From an uncultured Candidatus Saccharibacteria bacterium (GTDB lineage: Bacteria; Patescibacteriota; Minisyncoccia; Sungbacterales; HO2-52-23): a DNA stretch of 28,265 nt. The translations under genes and the position numbers were made by a program. Under the pieces are notes generated by a model. That model was not told the origin of the DNA and did not search any database. It saw only the letters and a program-made list of their open reading frames with translations. Positions 4,663 to 21,494 of this stretch are shown piece by piece. Where the stretch lies: contig CAZYED010000001.1 of assembly GCA_964646295.1 (NCBI GenBank), positions 22,527 to 50,791 on the forward strand, in the 5' to 3' direction. Each line of letters opens with the position of its first letter. Position 1 is the stretch's first letter.

Positions 4663-6018
4663 ATGGAGAAAGCATCAGAACAAAACTTCGTATCAATGGA
4701 AAAGATCGTGAGCTTGGCCAAGCGGCGCGGCTTTGTCTTTCCCGCGTCCGAGATATATGGCGGGCTTGCTGGTACATGGGACTATGGGCCTTTGGGCGTG
4801 GAGCTCAAAAACAACATCAAAGAAATGTGGTGGCGGAGATTTGTGCGTGCCCGCGACGACATGGTGGGGATTGATACTGCAATCGTGATGAATCCGAAAG
4901 TATGGGAAGTATCGGGCCACGTCGGCGAATTTACCGATCCTCTGGTAGAGTGCAAAAAATGCCATCAGCGTTTTCGCGCCGATCAGACGGACGAATGGAC
5001 GGGACATTACGCGCGGGAGCATGGCCGGGCGGCAGAGGACGCGGATTTTTCCGAAGCGCGGAATTTCAATCTTCTGTTTCGCACATTTGTCGGCCCGGTG
5101 GAGGATTCCGCAAGCCAGACATACTTGCGTCCCGAAACTGCGCAGGGGATGTTTGTGAATTTCAAAAATATCACGGATACCATGCGCCATACTCTGCCTT
5201 TTGGTATCGCGCAGATCGGCAAGGCATTTCGCAACGAAATCACTCCGCGCGACTTCATCTTCCGCTCCCGCGAATTTGAGCAGATGGAAATAGAGTATTT
5301 TGTCCGCGAGGCGTCATGGGAGGATCACTTCGCGCACTGGCTCAACGAAATGCGCGCGTGGATCAGCGATATGGGTATCAGTATGGAGCGCGTGCATGAG
5401 CTTGAAGTGCCGGACGGGGAGCGCGCGCACTACTCAAAGCGCACGGTTGATTTTGAGTATGATTTTCCGTTTGGTAAAAAAGAACTGTACGGCCTCGCAT
5501 ACCGGGGCGACTTTGATCTCAAAAATCACTTCAAAGAGCCGCCGTATCGCGAGGAGGGCGAGGAGCCGTTTTATCCGCACGTGATTGAGCCGACATGGGG
5601 CGTGGATCGTACGGTGCTTGCGGTTTTGCTTGAGGCGTATCGTGAGGAAGAAAGCAAGAAAGGAAAGCGCGTATATCTGAAACTGCCGCCACGTCTGGCG
5701 CCCTACAAAGCCGCCGTATTTCCTCTGGTATCAAATCGTCCGCAGATCGTGGAAAAAGCAAATGAGGTGTGCAAGGAGCTCAAAGCGGGGGGGTTCAGTG
5801 TCGCATGGGACGCGCGCGGCAACATCGGCAAGCGTTATTATGCGCAGGATGAGATCGGCACTCCCTACTGTATCACGGTAGATTATCAGACATTGGAAGA
5901 CGGTACCGTGACAGTGCGCGATCGCGACACGGCAAAACAGGAACGCATAGCCGTGTCGGAATTGGCAAGGTTTTTAGCAGAAAAAACAAAGGGATCAATC
6001 TCAAACGCCACGCAATAG
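4663..6018 (+). CDS. glyQS: Glycyl-tRNA synthetase, homodimeric class II type
   Basis: KRRGFVFPASEIYGG, WDYGPLG, YLRPETAQG, motif 2 QIGKAFRNEITP, EQMEIEYF, and anticodon domain IGKRYYAQDEIGTPYCITVD. Confidence 0.97.
   Translation: MEKASEQNFVSMEKIVSLAKRRGFVFPASEIYGGLAGTWDYGPLGVELKNNIKEMWWRRFVRARDDMVGIDTAIVMNPKVWEVSGHVGEFTDPLVECKKCHQRFRADQTDEWTGHYAREHGRAAEDADFSEARNFNLLFRTFVGPVEDSASQTYLRPETAQGMFVNFKNITDTMRHTLPFGIAQIGKAFRNEITPRDFIFRSREFEQMEIEYFVREASWEDHFAHWLNEMRAWISDMGISMERVHELEVPDGERAHYSKRTVDFEYDFPFGKKELYGLAYRGDFDLKNHFKEPPYREEGEEPFYPHVIEPTWGVDRTVLAVLLEAYREEESKKGKRVYLKLPPRLAPYKAAVFPLVSNRPQIVEKANEVCKELKAGGFSVAWDARGNIGKRYYAQDEIGTPYCITVDYQTLEDGTVTVRDRDTAKQERIAVSELARFLAEKTKGSISNATQ
5917..5942 (+). 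repeat. 26-bp direct repeat, left copy (inside glyQS 3' end); right copy at 10842-10867
   Basis: CGCGATCGCGACACGGCAAAACAGGA is identical at both positions and begins with the 10-bp palindrome CGCGATCGCG. Confidence 0.92.
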
Positions 6019-6087
6019 CCGTGCAGATTTGGATTTATCCATCATCGTGTTGCCAACTTTCTGGAAATGTTGGTCTTTATGCGTCTC

Positions 6088-6116
6088 TTGCGCTCAATAT
6101 CCTTTTGCGCTACATT
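6088..6116 (+). promoter_or_regulatory. Predicted sigma70 promoter in the CRISPR leader
   Basis: TTGCGC(6088-6093)-17 bp-TACATT(6111-6116), 31 bp before repeat 1. Confidence 0.6.
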
Positions 6117-6147
6117 CCCAAAAGCTCTTTGATAGGCCCAAGGCGCT

Positions 6148-7728
6148 GTCTAAGAGTTACCCTATGAGAGGGAGTGTGTAAACGGGCGTAAACGGGCTTT
6201 GGGTCGTTACCCATCTGCGTCTAAGAGTTACCCTATGAGAGGGAGTTGCAAACTTCTGATGCTGGCAGTGATCCATCGCGGGTCTAAGAGCTACTCTCTG
6301 AGAGGAAGTGTGTAAACGTGCGTTGGCTTCCCTAATCTTATTCTTCTAAGAGCTACCCCATGAGAGGATGTGTTGAAACCATTATTGGCCTCCATGTGAG
6401 ATGTGTCAAAGAGTTCCTCATGAGAGGAGGTGTTGAAACGGCTTTTCTCCATCCTGCTAATACAGGTCAAAGGGCCACCTCATGAGAGGGAGTATGCAAA
6501 CGTGTGGTTTCTTTTTCTTGACAATTGTCTAAGAGTTGCCCCATGAGAGGGAGCATGCAAACAGGTGGTCCGTCTCAATCAGCATGGAATCTAAGAGCTA
6601 CTCCATGAGAGGGAGTATGTAAACAGGAGATTCTTCAAGCCGTCGAGGGGTCTAAGGACTACCTTATGAGAGGGAGTACGTAAACGAGCAGTCGGGTTTT
6701 GGCAGATTGAGTCAAAGATGAGAGGGAGCATGTAAACACGCTCTCAAAAAACTTGATGCCGTATCTAAGAACTACCCCATGAGAGGAAGTGTGTAAACTT
6801 GTAAACGCTTCCGTGCCACACATGTCCAGGAGTTACCCTGTGAGAGGGAGCATCTAAACCCAACAGCCGTAATGAGTAGCCCCGTCTAAGAGCCACCTTG
6901 TGAGAGGGAGCGTGTAAACCAACACACTTTTACCACGGAGGCTATGTCTAAGGACTACCTCATGAGAGGGGGCATGCAAACGCGGGATGTTCTCGTGGGT
7001 CGCCTTGGTCTAAGAGTCATCCCATGAGAGGAAGTGTGTAAACGCGTATCGGTGTGCTCGATTGAGAAGTCCAAGAGTTACCCCATGAGAGGGAGCATGG
7101 AAACGACCGAGCCTTCGACTTCCCACGCGAGTCTAAGAGCTACCCCATGGGAGGGAGCGTATAAACAATAACTTGTGTATCATTCGTGTAGAGTTAAAGA
7201 GCCACCTCATGAGAGGAAGTGTGTAAACAGGAGCGCACCGTACCAAAACAATTACGTCTAAGAACTACCCAATGAGAGGATGTATTGAAACCGGACAACG
7301 TCAGCATGCTCTTGAGATCAAAAAGTTGCCATATGAGGGGGAGCGTGTAAACGCCTAAAAACAGAAGGCGACCAAATTGTCTAAGTCTAAGAGTTCCCCT
7401 ATGGGAGGGAGCATGTAAACAAGTCCTCTGATCGTCCGCCATCCCATGTCTAAGAGTCACCCCATGAGAGGGGCATGTAAACCGTCGTCCGAGTCGCAAC
7501 GAGTTTGCAGTCTAAGCGCTACCCTATGAGAGGAAGTGTGTAAACTATAACGTCCTCTGCAAGGTGTCTGGTCTAAGAGTCATCCCATGAGAGGGAGCAT
7601 GTAAACATAGCCCTGACAGGAGAGAGTTACCAGTCTAAGGATTACCTCATGAGAGGGAGAATTGAAACGACGGCAATGGGTGGGGTCCTCAGAGTCTAAG
7701 AGTCACCAATGAGAGGAGGTATTGAAAC
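6148..7728 (+). CRISPR. CRISPR array: 26 degenerate ~36-bp repeats and 25 spacers (24-28 bp, one of 35 bp)
   Basis: Approximate consensus GTCTAAGAGYTACCYCATGAGAGGRAGYRTGTAAAC with a ~61-62 bp period. Repeat starts: 6148, 6219, 6282, 6344, 6405, 6466, 6527, 6589, 6650, 6711, 6763, 6824, 6884, 6946, 7008, 7069, 7131, 7193, 7256, 7317, 7385, 7448, 7510, 7571, 7633, 7694. All end in AAAC. Confidence 0.96.
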
Positions 7729-7756
7729 CTGGCTTACCATGAAGAGTAGCCAACAT

Positions 7757-7916
7757 TAAATTTTTTGAGCCCTGTCTCCGCGAGGAAGACAGGGCTCTTT
7801 TCATGAGAGGAAGCTTTTATACCCGACCGGTAATCCGGTCGGGGGATTGGCCGTTGAAACGATTTTAAAGCGGCCAATGGGCTTCTCTGTACGATACTAC
7901 CTATACAAGGAGCTTG
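7757..7916 (-). ncRNA. Predicted tracrRNA (boundaries approximate)
   Basis: Lies downstream of a canonical promoter. Contains stems at 7846-7878 and 7822-7843 (9-bp perfect), an anti-repeat at 7802-7822 complementary to the repeat 3' half, and the 7767-7797 hairpin. Confidence 0.72.
7767..7801 (+). terminator. Intrinsic terminator-like hairpin downstream of the array
   Basis: Perfect 11-bp stem GAGCCCTGTCT/AGACAGGGCTC (7767-7797) followed by TTTT on the + strand. Confidence 0.6.
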
Positions 7917-7922
7917 GGGAAA

Positions 7923-7951
7923 AAGATAGCTCAATCACGTTATCTTGTCAA
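7923..7951 (-). promoter_or_regulatory. Predicted sigma70 promoter for the tracrRNA
   Basis: Minus strand TTGACA(7951-7946)-17 bp-TATCTT(7928-7923). The -35 box lies in the last codons of the cas gene. Confidence 0.7.
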
Positions 7952-10513
7952 GGGGTTGGGAGCATCGGTATCCGGCGTGCGCCTGATCAAAGATATGGCG
8001 CGCCACGCCAGATTGATCGCGGCCAGCACGTCGGACTGTCCGTTGAATCCGCATCGGTGGCAAAAAAACTGCCCCCATTGCGGTTGCGGCTCAAGCGCAA
8101 GCCCGAGCAGTTGTCTGCTCTTGTGATCGTCCCCTTGCCGGATCGCTCGCTCAAGGTCTTCCAATGTCCCCCGCACGACGCGATGATAACGCGGAGTCAG
8201 CCGGACCCACTCCCTGCTAAGCGTAAAAAGTTCCCCGAAATCCACAGTGCCTGCATCGCAATCCACGTTGTCAAACCCCGTTGCGGCCGCGTCATCCACG
8301 ATATCGGGAATGACTACCATGGTATCGCGGTGTCCGGGATTTTTCGGTCGTCTCGCAAGCCAGGCGGTTCCGCACTGTGTGCAGGTGCGGGAGATGCCGC
8401 CCGGATAAATTTCCATCAGACCTCCCCATGGGTTGTCTTTTTTGTCAATGCGGACCGCGCCGGCAAAACTCAACGCGTCCACAAAGCCCGTTTTGTTGGC
8501 AAGATAGGTCTTTTTGGAAATAATCTTTTGCTCCCTGCCATGGAACCGGTCATCCAGCCGTTCTATCGCGAGGATACCTTTCCAAAATGCGACCAGTGAA
8601 TGGATCTTTGCCCGGGCGCTTCCCAAAACCGTATCCTGCAGGTGTCGGACCTTTTGGCGTAAATCGCGGGGCGGGGTTTGTTCGCGGGATTGGTACTCGC
8701 TGATCCGGCGTCTGGTCTCTATCAACCGGTCTATGTACTCCTTTTTGCCGAGAATACCCTCCTCAAGCACCCGGCCATCCTCTACAGACACCACGGCATA
8801 GGCAAGCGGATTGACCTCGCCGCGGTTTATCCCGATGACGGTGCGGGCGCGGGAATGCACATCGGAGGAGAAATCCAGATACCCCACCGGCGGAGGTCCG
8901 CTGATGACCATATGGAAGAATAACGTCCACTGGTCTTGGGGATTTCTTTTTTTCCCCACCAGCTTGGCGTTGGAGGCGAATACGCGCGGATTATCCGACA
9001 AGAGGCCCCACGTTTTATTGGTGAGCATCTTGCGCGCCTGCGATCTGCCGAAATAAAGGCGGAGTTTCAGCGCTACACCGGATGCGGGGTACTCGTCAAA
9101 AGATCCGGGTACCCATGTGATCTCTTTGTCCGGATTGTCTTTGCCTCGTCTGCCGCCGGTCGGTCTCATATAGATCAAATCTCCTCCTTTTTCTCTGATA
9201 GAGAATGCGGCGGGTGATGGGGAAAGACAGATATATAACTCCAGGGCATCGGCCGGAGTGTCGGCGTCTTTGGCAAGCGCCATGCCGTATTGAGGCGCGG
9301 GATTGGTCCGGTTGCTCGCCCACGAAAATCCTTCAAACGGGGCCGATATTGTCTCGGCTCGCACTCTTCTGCTTGCCGCATTGCTCCGGAGGAACTGGAT
9401 CTCGGTCCACCGGTCAGGATGCGCAAGCGTCGCGCGAAAGGAAAGGATATCCATGTATCTTGCCCTGATCTGGCTGTCAAAGGGCGCGCGGGCAAATCCT
9501 TGACGGCGCTTTTCGCATACCCGATCAATTTCGCCGAGGAAATGTCCGGCGACCGTTGACGGATCTTCTTCGGGGTTCCTCTCCATACGGATAGCACAGT
9601 ACAGAGCGACTCGTTGGGGCAGTGGCACGGCGCTTCCGAGTTTCCGGCGCACAGCCTTGTGCCTCACGCGATGGATATAGCCGAGGGTTTCGGCGGTGTG
9701 TGGTCTGACCTTTGCCATATCTTCCAGTTGCCGGATGATTACCATGGTATCCGGCGGCGTCCCGCGCTCGGCAATGGGAAATTTCGGAAGGTCGTTGATC
9801 CGCCCATTGAAAAATCGGAGGCGGGGCGACTCCCCGGTTTCTTCCGGCTCGTCCGCTTTCGCAAGGGCTGGAAGCATCTGATTGAGCGCGTAATTGTACG
9901 CGCCTTTCAGCACGTTTGTCTCTGCAATGAGCGCCCGGAATGCGCAAAGCGCGCCAAAATCCGCCGTCACCGCATCATACTCGGGCGCCAGACAGGTGGT
10001 GAGGCGGGTACGCAGGGCGTTGACAATGTCGGCCCAATCCATGTCCGCCGCATCCCGGAGTAACGCCTCATTGGCCTCCAAACACTCGGCGTATTCCCGC
10101 ATTTTCTTCCGGCCTTCCTCAAAAAGCCGTCGGTGGTTGGTGTGGAATGCGGCCATTGCGCCTTCGGCCTCGTGTCGCATTGCCGTAAAAACGGCAGATG
10201 TCATGATCGCGGGGTCAATATCGCGAAGGCCGTCAAGCACGGGCCTGCCTTTAAAAAATGTCTCGTATGAGAATTTTTCTTTCAGGTAGGCAAGGGGATT
10301 TTCTTGGAAATGCGCATAGAGCATTCCATAGAGTCTCTCACGCGCGGCCTCTGTCGCGGCAAACCATCGCTCTATGATGGCGTATTGCCTCTTTGTCGGT
10401 TTTATGCCAAAAGAGAATACGCGCGTGACTTGTCCGGGGATGACCCCGAAGTGATCGCTAATACGAGTCGTGTTGACCAAGGATTTGGTACTGGGCTTAT
10501 GCGCGTCGTCCAC
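7940..10513 (-). CDS. cas12: Type V CRISPR effector, CasX/Cas12e-like (857 aa), with RuvC-I Asp replaced by Asn; predicted nuclease-impaired
   Basis: TnpB-like N-terminus (RVFSFGIKPTKRQ), RuvC-I VIGINRGEVNP, RuvC-II ILAIERL (E651), split Zn ribbon CTQC (711-714) and CHRC (818-821), RuvC-III QSDVLAAINLA (D828). GTG start with SD AAGGAG; adjacent to the array. From memory it closely resembles the Ca. Sungbacteria 'CasX3' sequence in CasX patent filings (not verified). Confidence 0.9.
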   Translation of the reverse strand: MDDAHKPSTKSLVNTTRISDHFGVIPGQVTRVFSFGIKPTKRQYAIIERWFAATEAARERLYGMLYAHFQENPLAYLKEKFSYETFFKGRPVLDGLRDIDPAIMTSAVFTAMRHEAEGAMAAFHTNHRRLFEEGRKKMREYAECLEANEALLRDAADMDWADIVNALRTRLTTCLAPEYDAVTADFGALCAFRALIAETNVLKGAYNYALNQMLPALAKADEPEETGESPRLRFFNGRINDLPKFPIAERGTPPDTMVIIRQLEDMAKVRPHTAETLGYIHRVRHKAVRRKLGSAVPLPQRVALYCAIRMERNPEEDPSTVAGHFLGEIDRVCEKRRQGFARAPFDSQIRARYMDILSFRATLAHPDRWTEIQFLRSNAASRRVRAETISAPFEGFSWASNRTNPAPQYGMALAKDADTPADALELYICLSPSPAAFSIREKGGDLIYMRPTGGRRGKDNPDKEITWVPGSFDEYPASGVALKLRLYFGRSQARKMLTNKTWGLLSDNPRVFASNAKLVGKKRNPQDQWTLFFHMVISGPPPVGYLDFSSDVHSRARTVIGINRGEVNPLAYAVVSVEDGRVLEEGILGKKEYIDRLIETRRRISEYQSREQTPPRDLRQKVRHLQDTVLGSARAKIHSLVAFWKGILAIERLDDRFHGREQKIISKKTYLANKTGFVDALSFAGAVRIDKKDNPWGGLMEIYPGGISRTCTQCGTAWLARRPKNPGHRDTMVVIPDIVDDAAATGFDNVDCDAGTVDFGELFTLSREWVRLTPRYHRVVRGTLEDLERAIRQGDDHKSRQLLGLALEPQPQWGQFFCHRCGFNGQSDVLAAINLAWRAISLIRRTPDTDAPNPLTR

Positions 10514-10716
10514 GATGTGTCTCCTTTCAAGGAGATGATATAAATTGTCAGAGAACAGCTTACTTCGGACGCATGAGATTCAAAACGTCTGATTCAGAGA
10601 TTTGTGCCACAGAAAATGATATTGTGCAAGCCCTTCGCCGCATGCTATTCTTTTAGTGTACGACCTGCGTTTTTTCTGACAGACGCGATTTCTTTCAACT
10701 TATTGCGGTGAGTAAA

Positions 10717-10841: not shown

Positions 10842-10928
10842 CGCGATCGCGACACGGCAAAACAGGAGCGGATAACGGTGAAAGGGATTAATATGTATAC
10901 ATCGAAAATAAAAACTAAAAGTGATTAA
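10842..10928 (+). pseudogene. Second copy of the glyQS 3' end
   Basis: Reads RDRDTAKQERITVKGINMYTSKIKTKSD*, versus RDRDTAKQERIAVSELARFLAEK in glyQS; no start codon or upstream glyQS sequence. Confidence 0.82.
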
Positions 10929-10940
10929 GAGGAAATAGTT

Positions 10941-11210
10941 ATGACGCCCCTTCTCTATCTCTTGCTTAATATATGCCTAATTCTACTTGCCGTTATACCC
11001 ATAGGTGTGGTCATCCCTGATTATCCTCTTAGTTATTTTGTAACGTATAAAGGCCCATGGTTCTATATACGTATTGGCAATAGACTTGTTGTTGGAAATA
11101 TGAGACGAAGACACGATCTGCCTCCATTTAACTATAAACGTCGTATAATCTATTCTCTTATAACGGCAAATCTAATCTTTCTTATGTTACAATATCTTCC
11201 CTTCTCTTGA
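10941..11210 (+). CDS. Small hypothetical membrane protein (AT-rich)
   Basis: 89-aa ORF with SD GAGG and two hydrophobic segments. Confidence 0.5.
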   Translation: MTPLLYLLLNICLILLAVIPIGVVIPDYPLSYFVTYKGPWFYIRIGNRLVVGNMRRRHDLPPFNYKRRIIYSLITANLIFLMLQYLPFS

Positions 11211-11228: not shown

Positions 11229-11591
11229 ATGAATCAACTTATGAATTTTTTAAAGAATCGAACCTATAGACTCTTAGCCGTAGAGTTGGTTCTTTTGGAT
11301 TTGATCCTATCGGTCTTCGGTTCTTTTTTCGCCCTGGATGGCTCACCGCAATTCATAGTAGATATTATGGGATTTCTCCTTAACATACTTTTCTGGTTCG
11401 GTATACCGGTATTTATCGTGTATCCCCCCATTTACTTAATAAAAAGAATGAGGGCAAAAAAGAATCTTGACAGGGAGGCATTTTATGCGTTGTATGGAGT
11501 ATCAATGCATCAGATATTGACGATCATATTTCTCCTCTTTTTATTGCCAATGTTCATACTGCCAACCCTGAACGTAATCTTATTTTGGTAA
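11229..11591 (+). CDS. Hypothetical membrane protein (AT-rich, about 3 TM)
   Basis: 120-aa hydrophobic ORF whose stop abuts the M16 start. Confidence 0.6.
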   Translation: MNQLMNFLKNRTYRLLAVELVLLDLILSVFGSFFALDGSPQFIVDIMGFLLNILFWFGIPVFIVYPPIYLIKRMRAKKNLDREAFYALYGVSMHQILTIIFLLFLLPMFILPTLNVILFW

Positions 11592-12869
11592 ATGTTTATG
11601 TTTAAAAAAACCACATTAGAAAACGGATTGCGCATTATTACCGCTCCTATGGTCGGGACCAATACCGTGACGGTACTGGTGCTGTGCGGTACGGGATCGG
11701 ATTATGAGGCGCGGGAGATCGGAGGCATCTCGCATTTTTTGGAGCACATGTTTTTCAAGGGCACGAAGAATCGCCCGACGCCGGATCATATCAAGCATGA
11801 GCTTGACGGCATGGGGTCCATCTCCAATGCGTTTACGAGCCATGAAATCACGGGCTATCACATCAAAGCCGCCAAGACCTATCTTGATCAGTCGCTTGAC
11901 CTGCTCGCCGATATCTACAAAAACTCTCTTTTGGCGGAGGAAGAAATCAATCGCGAGCGGCAGGTGATCATAGAGGAGATGCACAAAGACCGCGACACGC
12001 CGACGCTATTTGTCTGGTGGGTGTGGGAGCGGCTCCTGTACGGAGACCAGCCGGCCGGATGGGACGTCATCGGAGAGGAAAAAGTGATCCGCGCGCTCTC
12101 GCGCGATGATTTTGCCAATTACTTCACGCACCAGTATGTCGCGTCCAACACCGCGATCGTGATCGCGGGCAATTTTGACCAGGACGCTACGGTTGCCCGC
12201 GCGCGAGAGCTTTTTGGCGATCTGCGATCGGCTCCGCCCATGCGGACGAAGCCCGCGGTACGCGATATACAAAACGGCATCGGGCTTGACCTTGAGTATA
12301 AGGAGACGGATCAGACGCATATCACGCTCGGATTTCGCGGATATGACGCAAATCACCCCAAGCGCTATATCGCGGAAGTGCTTGCGGCCCTGCTCGGAGG
12401 ATCGTGGAGTGCCCGTATGTGGGATCGCATACGCGACAAGCTTGGCCTGGCATACACCGTGATGACGGCGCATGAATCGTATTCAAACCGCGGATATCTT
12501 GTGACGTATGCGGGCGTGGATCACGCCAATGTGGAGAAGACGATCCGCGCGGCTCTGGAGGAATATAAACGCATGACCGTGGAGCCGGTTTCGGCGGCCG
12601 AGCTCAAGCGCGTCAAAGACTATATGCGCGGCACGACCCTGATCGGCCTTGAGCAATCCAATGCGGTGGCAAATTTCATCGGGGGAGAGGAGATGCTGAC
12701 GGGCAAGCCCCAGACGATTGATGAGGTGTTTGCGAAGATTGACGCGGTAACGCCAGAAGATATCCTGATGGTATCGCGCGAGCTGATCCGCCCCGAGGCT
12801 CTCAATCTTGCCATGATAGGGCCCGCCCGCGATCGTGCGCCTTTTGAACGCATCTTGAAAGAACTATGA
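11592..12869 (+). CDS. M16 family zinc peptidase (pitrilysin-like)
   Basis: Inverted zinc motif HFLEH in GISHFLEHMFFKGT; NAFTS; IRDKLGLAY. Confidence 0.93.
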   Translation: MFMFKKTTLENGLRIITAPMVGTNTVTVLVLCGTGSDYEAREIGGISHFLEHMFFKGTKNRPTPDHIKHELDGMGSISNAFTSHEITGYHIKAAKTYLDQSLDLLADIYKNSLLAEEEINRERQVIIEEMHKDRDTPTLFVWWVWERLLYGDQPAGWDVIGEEKVIRALSRDDFANYFTHQYVASNTAIVIAGNFDQDATVARARELFGDLRSAPPMRTKPAVRDIQNGIGLDLEYKETDQTHITLGFRGYDANHPKRYIAEVLAALLGGSWSARMWDRIRDKLGLAYTVMTAHESYSNRGYLVTYAGVDHANVEKTIRAALEEYKRMTVEPVSAAELKRVKDYMRGTTLIGLEQSNAVANFIGGEEMLTGKPQTIDEVFAKIDAVTPEDILMVSRELIRPEALNLAMIGPARDRAPFERILKEL

Positions 12870-18389: not shown

Positions 18390-21300
18390 ATGCGTTATCA
18401 TCCTCAAAAAATAGAGAAGAAATGGCAGGCTCGCTGGCTTAAGGAAAAGACATACGAGCCCGATCTCAAGCGGGCAAAAAAGCCTTTTTATAATCTCATG
18501 ATGTTTCCGTATCCCTCCGCGGAGGGGCTTCATGTGGGCAATATGTATGCGTTTACGGGGTCTGACATCTACGGCCGCCTGAAACGGATGCAGGGATACG
18601 ACGTATTTGAGCCCATTGGTTTGGACGGATTCGGGATCCACTCGGAAAACTACGCGATCAAAATCGGCGCGCATCCGATGAAGCAGGCGAAGATCTCCGA
18701 AAAGAATTTTTATCGCCAACTTGCCATGATCGGCAACGGATTTGCGTGGCGCGAGCATCTGGAGACCTATGACCCCGAATACTACAAATGGACGCAGTGG
18801 ATCTTTATCCAAATGTTTAAGCAAGGCCTTGCATATCGCAAGAAGCAGGCGGTCAACTGGTGCCCATCGTGCAAGACGGTACTGGCCGACGAGCAGGTGA
18901 TCGCGGGCAAGTGCGAGCGATGCGGATCCACGGTGATCAAAAAAGAGCTTGAGCAGTGGTTTTTCCGCATCACCAAGTATGCGCCGCATCTTTTGAAAAA
19001 TCTCCAGACGCTTGACTGGTCAGAGCGCGTGAAGATCGCACAGCGCGAATGGATCGGTCGGAGCGACGGAGCCATGATTTCTTTTGAAATCCGTCGCTCC
19101 GCGCGGAATGTCACAGACAGAACGCAGAATATCGCAGAAAATGTTCAGCGTGATTCTGCGTCAAGTCAGCGAGAATCTGCGACGTTGACAACAGTCAACG
19201 TATTTACGACGCGGCCCGATACATTGTTTGGCGCGACGTATCTGGTCGTGGCGCCGGAGCATGTGGTGATCAGGAATCAGGAATCAAGAATCAGGAATTA
19301 TGGAGAGGTCACGAAATATGCGGAGCAAGCGCGGGGCAAGGCGGAAGCGGACAGGATTGCGGAGGGGCGGGAGAAGACAGGGGTTGAGCTGAAAGGTATC
19401 AAAGCGATCAATCCCGCAAACAATGAAGAGATACCGATCTTTGTCGCGGACTATGTGCTCGCAGGATATGGTACGGGTGCCATCATGGCAGTACCCTCAC
19501 ACGACGGGCGCGATCTGGAGTTTGCGCGAAAGTACGGGATTCCCGAGCGCACAGTGATCGTGCGACAGAGCATGAAGTGCGTACTGGTACACGGATGCCC
19601 CGCCAAACCGGAAGATAGGGTGGACGTGACAAAAGCGAGCGACAAGCATTGGATCCCGTGGATGAGGGAGCAGATGCAAAAGAATAAGATTCGGGTATTT
19701 ACGCCCCTTATGCCGGAGCCCTGGAAGCCCGACTATGCGGCATGGAAGAAAGAATTTGAAAAAATACCGGTGGATGAAAATACCGTGGTTGTGGGGCACA
19801 GTTGCGGCGGGGCATTTCTCGTCCGGTGGCTTGGAGAGACGCAGAGGAAAGTGAAGAAGCTGATTTTACTCGCCGGAGCGAAAATTCCGGCGGATGATGC
19901 GAACGAGGTTATACGCAATCTGTATGATTTTGATATTGACCCGCGTATACGCGACAACGTCGGCGAGATCGCCGTCTTGATTTCCGATGACGATGAGGAG
20001 CGACACAGAAAGTCAGCCGTACTGTACGCTGAGGCGCTCCACGGGAGGCTCGTGAAGTTTAAGGGCAAGGGGCATTTCCTTTTCAAGCAGATGGGGACGA
20101 ATGCCCTTCCGGAGCTTTTTGACGAAATTTTGAAGACCGCCGATGCATATACGGAAGGCGGCACGGTGGTAAATTCCGGGACGTTCAATGGCATGGACTG
20201 GCAAATGGCCAAAGGGGAAATTACCAAGTCTGTAAACGGAAAACTTGTAACGACATATCATCTTCGCGATTGGCTTGTATCACGCCAGCGCTACTGGGCG
20301 CCGCCGATTCCGATGATCTTCTGCGATGCATGCGCGGCGGCGAAAAGGGGCGAGCGCGCCGAAATGCCCGGATGGTATACGGCTCCCGCCAAAACCCTGC
20401 CGGTAAAGCTTCCGTTTATCAAAAACTTCCGTCCCACGGGGAGCGATCAGTCGCCGCTTGCGGGTGTGGCGAAGTTTTACCGCGTCCGGTGTCCCGCCTG
20501 CCGCGCGTGGGCGCGGCGCGAGACAGATGTCTCGGATACGTTTTTGGATTCGGCATGGTACTATCTGCGGTATCCCAGTGTCGGCGACAAAAAATACGCA
20601 TGGAATCCCGCTATTACAAAAAAATGGCTTCCGGTGACGCGCTATATGGGAGGTGCGGAGCACTCGGTACTGCATTTGCTCTATGTGCGGTTTTTGGCGA
20701 TGGCCCTGCACGATGCCGGGCTGGTGGATTTTGAAGAGCCGATGCCGACGTTTCGCGCGCACGGCCTCATCATCAAGGATGGCGCCAAGATGTCCAAATC
20801 CAAAGGGAACATCATCAATCCCGATGAATATATCCGCGCCTACGGCGCGGACGCGCTCCGCATGTATCTCATGTTTTTGGCGCCATGGGAGCAGGGGGGG
20901 GATTTCCGCGACGCGGGTATCAAGGGGATCACGCGGTTTTTGGAAAGAGCATGGAAGTTTGCGGATGCCAGACTGCAGACCGCAGATACGTCGCAAGTCT
21001 TAAACCCCGATGTGCAGATGCTGATGCACAAGACCATCAAGAAAGTAGGCGAGGATATAGAAAATCTGCAGTACAATACGGCGATTTCGTCGCTTATGAT
21101 ACTGTTGAATACAATTGAGACATCGTCCGATGCAGTGAGCCTTGAGGATATAAAAGTATTTTTGAAACTGCTCGCGCCTTTTGCTCCTCATATCACCGAG
21201 GATCTCTGGCAACGACATCGTCCTATAACCTACAACCTACAACCTACGATCTTTCGTTCAATTCATCGTGAGCCGTGGCCGGAGTATGATCCGCGTATGA

Positions 21301-21494
21301 TAGTTGAGAAGACGTTTGAGCTCGTGGTGCAGGTGAATGGCAAAATGCGCGGCCGTATCACTCTGCCCGCGGGGGCTGGCGAGGCGCAGGCCGTGGCCGC
21401 GGCGCGCGGGATGGACACCGTGAGACCGTATCTTATTTCCGAGCCGCGCAAAGTGATCTTTGTTCCGGATCGTCTCATCAATTTTGTCACGTAA
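18390..21494 (+). CDS. leuS: Leucyl-tRNA synthetase with an inserted alpha/beta-hydrolase domain
   Basis: MFPYPSAEGLHVGN, FTTRPDT, GTGAIMAVPSHD, DW..SRQRYW, DTFLDSAWY and KMSKS. The insertion spans 19572-20135. Confidence 0.96.
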   Translation: MRYHPQKIEKKWQARWLKEKTYEPDLKRAKKPFYNLMMFPYPSAEGLHVGNMYAFTGSDIYGRLKRMQGYDVFEPIGLDGFGIHSENYAIKIGAHPMKQAKISEKNFYRQLAMIGNGFAWREHLETYDPEYYKWTQWIFIQMFKQGLAYRKKQAVNWCPSCKTVLADEQVIAGKCERCGSTVIKKELEQWFFRITKYAPHLLKNLQTLDWSERVKIAQREWIGRSDGAMISFEIRRSARNVTDRTQNIAENVQRDSASSQRESATLTTVNVFTTRPDTLFGATYLVVAPEHVVIRNQESRIRNYGEVTKYAEQARGKAEADRIAEGREKTGVELKGIKAINPANNEEIPIFVADYVLAGYGTGAIMAVPSHDGRDLEFARKYGIPERTVIVRQSMKCVLVHGCPAKPEDRVDVTKASDKHWIPWMREQMQKNKIRVFTPLMPEPWKPDYAAWKKEFEKIPVDENTVVVGHSCGGAFLVRWLGETQRKVKKLILLAGAKIPADDANEVIRNLYDFDIDPRIRDNVGEIAVLISDDDEERHRKSAVLYAEALHGRLVKFKGKGHFLFKQMGTNALPELFDEILKTADAYTEGGTVVNSGTFNGMDWQMAKGEITKSVNGKLVTTYHLRDWLVSRQRYWAPPIPMIFCDACAAAKRGERAEMPGWYTAPAKTLPVKLPFIKNFRPTGSDQSPLAGVAKFYRVRCPACRAWARRETDVSDTFLDSAWYYLRYPSVGDKKYAWNPAITKKWLPVTRYMGGAEHSVLHLLYVRFLAMALHDAGLVDFEEPMPTFRAHGLIIKDGAKMSKSKGNIINPDEYIRAYGADALRMYLMFLAPWEQGGDFRDAGIKGITRFLERAWKFADARLQTADTSQVLNPDVQMLMHKTIKKVGEDIENLQYNTAISSLMILLNTIETSSDAVSLEDIKVFLKLLAPFAPHITEDLWQRHRPITYNLQPTIFRSIHREPWPEYDPRMIVEKTFELVVQVNGKMRGRITLPAGAGEAQAVAAARGMDTVRPYLISEPRKVIFVPDRLINFVT
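19102..19181. repeat. In-frame palindromic repeat element inside leuS
   Basis: Four CGC(A/G)GA-like units followed by four complementary TC(T/A)GCG units, each at about 10-bp spacing. Confidence 0.65.

Follow-up and report, generated by a model that had tools for sequence, protein, structure and literature searches.

A Cas12e (CasX) island with an altered RuvC site in two Candidatus Sungbacteria species, a candidate for interference by RNA-guided DNA binding

The locus and its effector

The stretch of DNA analysed here, in the following called the window, comprises 28,265 nt (contig CAZYED010000001.1, positions 22,527 to 50,791) and stems from the assembly GCA_964646295.1 of a groundwater bacterium (864 kb, 97 contigs, 92.5% complete). 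At positions 6019-10513 it contains a compact CRISPR module, which consists of a leader, an array, a gene for a trans-activating CRISPR RNA (tracrRNA) on the minus strand, and an intact gene for a Cas12e (CasX) effector (Table 1). A first-pass annotation had described a three-part CasX-type system of effector, tracrRNA and array, with 26 repeats and 25 guides and an intact effector of 857 aa with an altered RuvC site. The three parts were confirmed by profile, fold and pairing evidence, the size of the array and the intact effector gene were verified, and the alteration was found to be Asn563, which replaces the catalytic Asp of RuvC-I. The nearest relative of the window genome is the metagenome-assembled genome (MAG) Candidatus Sungbacteria bacterium RIFCSPHIGHO2_02_FULL_52_23, in the following called the sister species, which carries a related locus.

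Table 1. Features of the Cas12e module, with positions in the window
Feature	Position	Strand	Remarks
Left 39-nt direct repeat copy	5917..5955	+	within the 3′ end of the synthetase gene; left border of the module
CRISPR leader, 129 nt	6019..6147	+	95.3% identical to the sister species, whose extra units directly adjoin
CRISPR array	6148..7728	+	26 degenerate repeats of ~36 nt, 25 spacers, mostly 24-27 nt
G+C-rich hairpin with subsequent TTTT	7767..7801	+	read from the sequence; folds computationally; would terminate the array transcript
Predicted tracrRNA	about 7796..7916	-	two stem-loops and a 13-nt anti-repeat at 7814-7802
Promoter-like TTGACA-17-TATCTT for the tracrRNA	7951-7923	-	10/12 matches in a consensus scan; overlaps the last cas12e codons
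cas12e (casX), 857 aa	7940..10513	-	GTG start, AAGGAG-type ribosome-binding site; intact open reading frame
Right 39-nt direct repeat copy	10842..10880	+	partial copy of the 3′ end of the synthetase gene; delimits the module on the right

The effector belongs to subtype V-E (Cas12e/CasX) and shows full-length homology to CasX. The NCBIfam model NF045604 (Cas12e/CasX) matched residues 27-840 with 681 bits (cutoff 200), and the PADLOC Cas12e model yielded 1281 bits. When the single sequence was compared with the PDB using phmmer, the CasX entries were missed, but they were recovered with a profile of 17 family members, i.e., PlmCasX (7way, 7.6e-102), VemCas12e (8xyc, 1.1e-89), DpbCasX (6ny1) and LesCas12e (8y2i), all four between 1e-82 and 1e-102. 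The AlphaFold model (pLDDT 82) had 7way and 8xyc as its top Foldseek matches. The Helical-I region is all-helical and devoid of the NTSB insert, and therefore the effector falls into the short Cas12e branch without NTSB domain (Li et al. 2024, PMC11685505).

Public databases already contain the protein, and annotation models identify it. Its clade is very rare. An exhaustive HMMER search retrieved only 29 relatives, and none exceeded ~38% identity except for the short fragments P0003 (89%) and P0010 (about 58-59%). The close homologue that had been expected does exist, namely a protein of the sister species with 90% identity (A3J58_03210, annotated as hypothetical protein), which was found in a search separate from the HMMER search. 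This homologue would fit the label "CasX3", which is used in patents. Scans of JGI metagenomes and GTDB genomes with the C-terminal alignment recovered only the sister species. P0010 is encoded on an ENA contig of 547 nt (L032), which ends short of RuvC-I; over the last 150 residues it is 58% identical to the window protein. It has I707 and Q810, its RuvC-III is of the QSD form, and it stems from a third lineage within the clade. At the level of the family, only 2/36 genomes carry the cas12e gene, i.e., the window genome and one congener.

The nuclease centre and its conservation

The RuvC-I motif of the effector reads VIGINRGE, with Asn563 (codon AAC at 8825-8827, minus strand) at the position of the catalytic Asp. 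The catalytic D-E-D triad is thus incomplete, with E651 and D828 retained. An Asp is found at the equivalent position in 15/15 other aligned family members, in a further fragment with 38% identity (P0011) and also in Cas12a, and among the 17 aligned members the exchange is restricted to the two Sungbacteria proteins. The sister protein shares N563 as well as I707 and Q810, and it was obtained with an identical sequence from 12 independent contigs of several sources, showing that N563 is not a sequencing error. In RuvC/RNase H folds, catalysis is abolished when the first carboxylate is changed from D to A or from D to N. The same Asp has been mutated to generate the dCas12e proteins D576A and D578A (PMC11685505).

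The alignment contains 31 columns that are invariant in the other 15 members, and the Sungbacteria pair departs from them at five positions (S122A, Y531L, D563N, T707I, R810Q). Two of these are near the nuclease centre in addition to Asn563: T707I falls in the TSxTC motif, and R810Q affects a family-invariant Arg eight residues ahead of the second CxxC, which we take to be equivalent to the Nuc/TNB arginine that is required for cleavage in Cas12a and Cas12f. Both exchanges are also present in P0010, and thus they predate the split of the two species. The two CxxC pairs of the TSL/zinc ribbon are kept (C711, C714, C818 and C821 are invariant). Invariant residues were not lost significantly more often in the nuclease half of the protein (3/20 vs 2/10).

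Selection has conserved not only the effector but also the tracrRNA, the leader and the pairing between repeats and anti-repeat. The comparison of the cas12e gene with that of the sister species resulted in a dN (nonsynonymous divergence) of 0.048 and a dS (synonymous divergence) of 0.209, and the dN/dS ratio of 0.23 lies between those of housekeeping neighbours (0.03-0.16) and of a surface protein (0.26). All domains of the effector are constrained (dN/dS 0.16-0.57), and the reading frame is intact in both species (855-857 aa). The tracrRNA core differs at a single position in 123 nt (99.2% identity) and the leader at 6 in 129 nt, in contrast to the neutral-looking intergenic region upstream of cas12e, which is 85.4% identical, and to dS values of 0.2-0.39. 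These differences in conservation, together with the dN/dS ratio of cas12e, indicate that the system is maintained and not decaying.

Guide RNAs, array and chromosomal setting

The predicted tracrRNA, including its anti-repeat, is encoded beside the array, as is expected for subtype V-E. The minus-strand region has a fold z-score of -8.4, and cofolding of tracrRNA and repeat resulted in a duplex of 13 bp. Each of the 13 anti-repeat positions pairs in 23-26 of the 26 repeats. Repeat bases opposite a U of the tracrRNA vary between A and G and those opposite a G vary between C and U, while those opposite a C or A are invariant; thus, at the pairing positions the variation is confined to sites where G-U is permitted. 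In addition, a loop segment of the tracrRNA (GUUUCAAC, 7860-7853) is complementary to the 3′ end of the repeat. The expected anti-repeat behind a promoter could be recognised in the putative arrangement of a promoter-like element and a downstream 13-nt anti-repeat at 7802-7814, and the sister locus has the same TTGACA/TATCTT hexamers. A search of Rfam yielded nothing above threshold, and a look for RNA runs found none listed. Two RNase III genes are present in the window genome.

When read on the minus strand, the G+C-rich hairpin behind the array closes the tracrRNA region at its 3′ side. Owing to its short T run, it was not reported by a simple scan. The sole change in the tracrRNA core between the two species is located here, a G to A exchange on the plus strand of the hairpin 7767-7797 (compared with loci L004 and L006). 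It retains a G-U pair in the minus-strand RNA and would create an A-C mismatch in the plus-strand RNA, which hints that the hairpin may matter for the minus-strand transcript, i.e., the tracrRNA.

The repeats of the array are very diverse. No two of the 26 are alike, and their mean pairwise identity is ~75%. The 3′ end is conserved, as is expected for subtype V-E, and all 26 repeats end with AAAC. Repeat 10 (6711-6737) is missing ~9 nt of its 5′ half with the 3′ guide handle intact, spacer 1 (6184-6218) contains a 10-nt tandem duplication across the repeat end, and spacer 20 (7353-7384) has a terminal 6-nt duplication of the repeat start. The drift among the repeats indicates that the units of the array are old. 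A hairpin within the repeat was also considered and was dropped, because the repeat variants show no covariation as judged by eye. No other array was found elsewhere in the window assembly.

The first-pass annotation had regarded the array as locked and had placed a promoter in the leader, and both claims could be retained only in part. The pieces of the window array were identical in four groundwater runs, in agreement with a locked array of old and drifted repeats. In contrast, strains of the sister species that are 99.8-100% identical around the locus have either 4 or 6 repeats, with perfect repeats at the leader end. The two extra units are adjacent to the leader, and their repeats equal repeat 1 down to a CC insertion that is specific to the lineage. 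The difference of two leader-end units between near-identical strains shows that this type of array has recently gained or lost units. The array is thus old and has a slow turnover, yet it is not frozen. As to the leader, its promoter-like sequence (TTGCGC-17-TACATT at 6088-6116) is weak and below the threshold of the consensus scan, while the leader as such is well conserved and the new units of the sister species are found at that end.

One spacer is clearly common to both species, spacer 12 (6860-6883), which is identical at 23/24 positions. Spacer 8 (6625-6649) and the third spacer of the sister array are identical at 18/25 positions (p ~0.01) and are possibly a second shared spacer. It was also considered whether spacer 12 is better conserved than its flanking repeats, but the differences (1/24 vs 10/72) were statistically indistinguishable. 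In one groundwater run (X2) a contig covering the region 7737-7960 had 10 differences from the window and matched the tracrRNA region of the sister species. This run therefore contains both species, and both array types coexist in one sample.

A repression of host targets had been proposed, and for this proposal no support was obtained. A BLAST comparison of the window spacers with the own genome yielded nothing beyond chance, and the longest exact match was 14 nt, compared with 13-17 nt for shuffled spacers. A comparison of the whole array with 62 genomes of the order gave, besides the sister array, nothing but chance-level matches. IMG/VR was scanned for exact matches to the 22-nt heads of six window spacers and the two newest sister spacers, which revealed no credible protospacer, and the same was true for a scan of JGI metagenomes and for the INPHARED phages and PLSDB plasmids. 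A 25/26 match between spacer 8 and a Rhizobium leguminosarum plasmid had an E value of 2 and was taken as chance.

The absence of cas1, cas2, cas4 and Tn7 genes from the vicinity was verified and was extended by a search of the full assembly. Cas1 was found neither in the window genome nor in three congeners (the sister species and two others). True cas2 or cas4 genes were also not found: a weak Cas2 match was a PaaX-type protein, and the Cas4 match was a 473-aa PDDEXK_1 nuclease on another contig, which was rejected as a generic PD-(D/E)XK nuclease away from the locus. The cas4-cas1-cas2 module that is typical, if not universal, for subtype V-E is thus not present in either Sungbacteria genome, while a relative with 34% identity that keeps the Asp has the gene order cas12e-cas4-cas1-cas2. 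TniQ was detected in neither of the two Sungbacteria genomes, with a model that matched no control genome either, so that this test is weak. Genes of the rve type and a lone TniB-like match, a generic AAA+ protein, are located on other contigs and are unlinked to the locus.

The module is located between the gene for a GlyRS-like class II synthetase (4663-6018) and the gene for an M16 peptidase (11592-12869), and it is bracketed by the two direct repeat copies, which are identical at 35/39 positions. The C-terminus that follows the left copy agrees with the ends of the synthetases from two congeners. In the sister locus the right copy has shrunk to ~10 nt. In one congener (G006) the gap is empty, and the peptidase gene starts within a few bases of the synthetase stop; in another (G005) it carries ~0.9 kb of other cargo, including a HicB-like small gene. 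The bracket of direct repeats and the variable gap between the two genes indicate that the module has been inserted as an island at a site of variable content. An integrase is not visible. The island of 4.9 kb entered the gap between the synthetase and peptidase genes in the common ancestor of the two Candidatus Sungbacteria species, and it contains the array, the tracrRNA gene and cas12e only.

Two small open reading frames are located between the island and the peptidase gene (10941-11210, 89 aa, and 11229-11591, 120 aa). They have no Pfam or PADLOC match and are not present in the sister locus, and the 89-aa product looks membrane-spanning. Further away, a large LeuRS-like class I synthetase (1016-1034 aa; window 18390-21494, sister locus L004 1-1416) has internal Pfam matches to serine hydrolases/alpha-beta-hydrolases.

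Interpretation and comparison with known systems

In the reading that we favour, the effector is a cleavage-impaired CasX, which would act by RNA-guided binding and would cut DNA very slowly or not at all. This reading of the sequence data is evenly poised between true and false. It is favoured because a key metal-binding Asp has been lost, and the loss of this residue generally abolishes catalysis in RuvC/RNase H folds. The array would be transcribed from the leader on the plus strand, and the minus-strand tracrRNA would pair with 13 nt of each repeat. The guides might be trimmed by host RNase III, for which two genes are available, or by the effector itself. The ribonucleoprotein would then locate a target flanked by a protospacer-adjacent motif (PAM) and form an R-loop, and cutting would be nil or very slow, because the first carboxylate of the RNase H fold is missing. 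Interference would be brought about by stable binding, which would block transcription or replication of the invading DNA, as for Cas12c and Cas12m. A more far-reaching version, which we hold to be somewhat more doubtful than probable, is that a cleavage-dead CasX has been under purifying selection since before the two species of the candidate phyla radiation (CPR) split, that it protects or regulates purely by binding, and that its array still gains spacers without encoded Cas1-Cas2, by uptake in trans or by an unknown route.

Several observations weigh against a CasX that acts by binding. Conservation persists at E651, at D828 and at the zinc cysteines as well as throughout the RuvC/TSL region, which could mean that a catalytic role remains, e.g., in RNA processing or slow cutting, and Asn563 itself might leave residual activity. 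The array polymorphism of the sister species implies an uptake or loss of spacers without a visible Cas1. Both genomes with the locus are MAGs, that of the window's species being 92.5% complete and that of the sister species 87%. Lastly, for none of the spacers was a protospacer found in the collections searched, and thus no PAM was readable.

A rival explanation is an ordinary cutting CasX, in which Asn563 is tolerated or compensated and target DNA is degraded, perhaps more slowly. Of the three catalytic carboxylates two have been retained, as have the zinc ribbon and 25 other family-invariant residues, purifying selection acts on the RuvC/TSL region, and eight of eight Cas12e orthologs assayed to date interfere with plasmids (PMC11685505). 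Nevertheless, we consider this explanation to be unlikely, because the altered residue is the metal-binding Asp whose exchange serves to kill Cas12e and which is invariant in every other member seen, because the one-base reversion from AAC to GAC is absent from both species over a dS of ~0.2, and because the invariant Arg before the second CxxC has also been lost. A decaying relic, in which an inactivated effector and a fossil array are heading for loss and have no present function, is far less probable still. The intact frame in both species and its dN/dS ratio, the near-identical tracrRNA core, a repeat drift that respects the anti-repeat pairing and the recent change at the leader end of the sister array all argue against it. 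The relic would be in line with 26/26 differing repeats, the truncated repeat and the slippage duplications in two spacers, with the loss of the adaptation genes and with the rarity of the clade.

Two further explanations assign a different task to a dead effector. The guides might take it to chromosomal sites of the bacterium or of a host cell, similar to TldR or natural CRISPR interference (CRISPRi), and the dead-looking nuclease, the lack of adaptation genes, the old and stable array and the vertical inheritance at a fixed site indeed resemble domesticated RNA-guided repressors. Such a regulator is nevertheless quite improbable, only slightly less so than a relic: the spacers matched the own genome no better than shuffled versions and gave nothing significant in the 62 genomes of the order, and in the sister species no more than one spacer is clearly shared and others were gained or lost, unlike a fixed regulon. 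The remaining explanation, a guide for another machine, as Cas12k is for a Tn7-like transposon, or a partner of an unrecognised gene, has very little probability. The combined loss of nuclease and adaptation genes is the pattern of the transposon-associated type V-K, but no TniQ was found, the TniB-like and rve-type genes are on other contigs, the island has no further genes, and the adjoining small open reading frames are missing from the sister locus.

If the interpretation as a binding-only CasX is correct, the consequences would concern both biology and application. CRISPR systems are rare in CPR bacteria, and thus a system that has been retained is informative about their defence economy. 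The locus also raises the question of adaptation, i.e., by what route the leader end of an array is altered when a genome has no Cas1-Cas2. CasX is a leading compact genome-editing enzyme, and an evolved DNA binder of 857 aa would be a compact dCasX scaffold with a possible use in CRISPRi or base-editor fusions. Among the papers searched, none joins Sungbacteria with CasX/Cas12e or describes a natural RuvC mutant of Cas12e, and to our knowledge every CasX characterised so far cuts DNA.

The closest known systems are found within the Cas12e family, across which the identity of the window protein is ~16-34%. The well-known DpbCasX and PlmCasX (6NY1, 7WAY) share whole-length homology by profile and fold, the order of the RuvC motifs and the TSL zinc ribbon, and likewise use a guide of tracrRNA and CRISPR RNA. 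In contrast to the window locus, they have ~980 aa, an NTSB domain, adjacent cas4-cas1-cas2 genes, uniform repeats and an active nuclease; the catalytic residues of DpbCasX are D672/E769/D935. The Cas12e orthologs without NTSB domain (VemCas12e, 8XYC; LesCas12e, 8Y2I; OpbCas12e; PMC11685505) are of the same size class (~850-900 aa) and are also tracrRNA-dependent, and the OpbCas12e locus likewise has no cas1, cas2 or cas4 and has its tracrRNA gene between cas12e and the array (PMC11685505). However, these orthologs have a full D-E-D triad and cut DNA, whereas the window protein has an Asn in RuvC-I and a Gln in place of the invariant Arg, and its repeats are strongly degenerate. The sister locus (A3J58_03210) has the same chromosomal site, tracrRNA and repeat family and one shared spacer, and it differs by its shorter array of 4 or 6 repeats and by the lack of the two small open reading frames and most of the right direct repeat.

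What Cas12c, Cas12m and Cas12k have in common with the Sungbacteria effector is the way in which it is proposed to act, namely by binding DNA under RNA guidance and leaving the target uncut. All three belong to different subtypes and are not closely homologous to the window effector (Cas12c match with E 0.0016), and Cas12c and Cas12m have no homology to it beyond the shared RuvC fold; both keep an intact RuvC, which is used on RNA. Cas12k also exhibits a loss of the adaptation genes, but it is tied to Tn7-like genes, which were not found at the window locus. If the proposed mode of action is correct, subtype V-E would have its first binding-only member in the Sungbacteria protein, and nuclease-free interference, known from Cas12c, Cas12m and Cas12k, would have arisen independently within this subtype.

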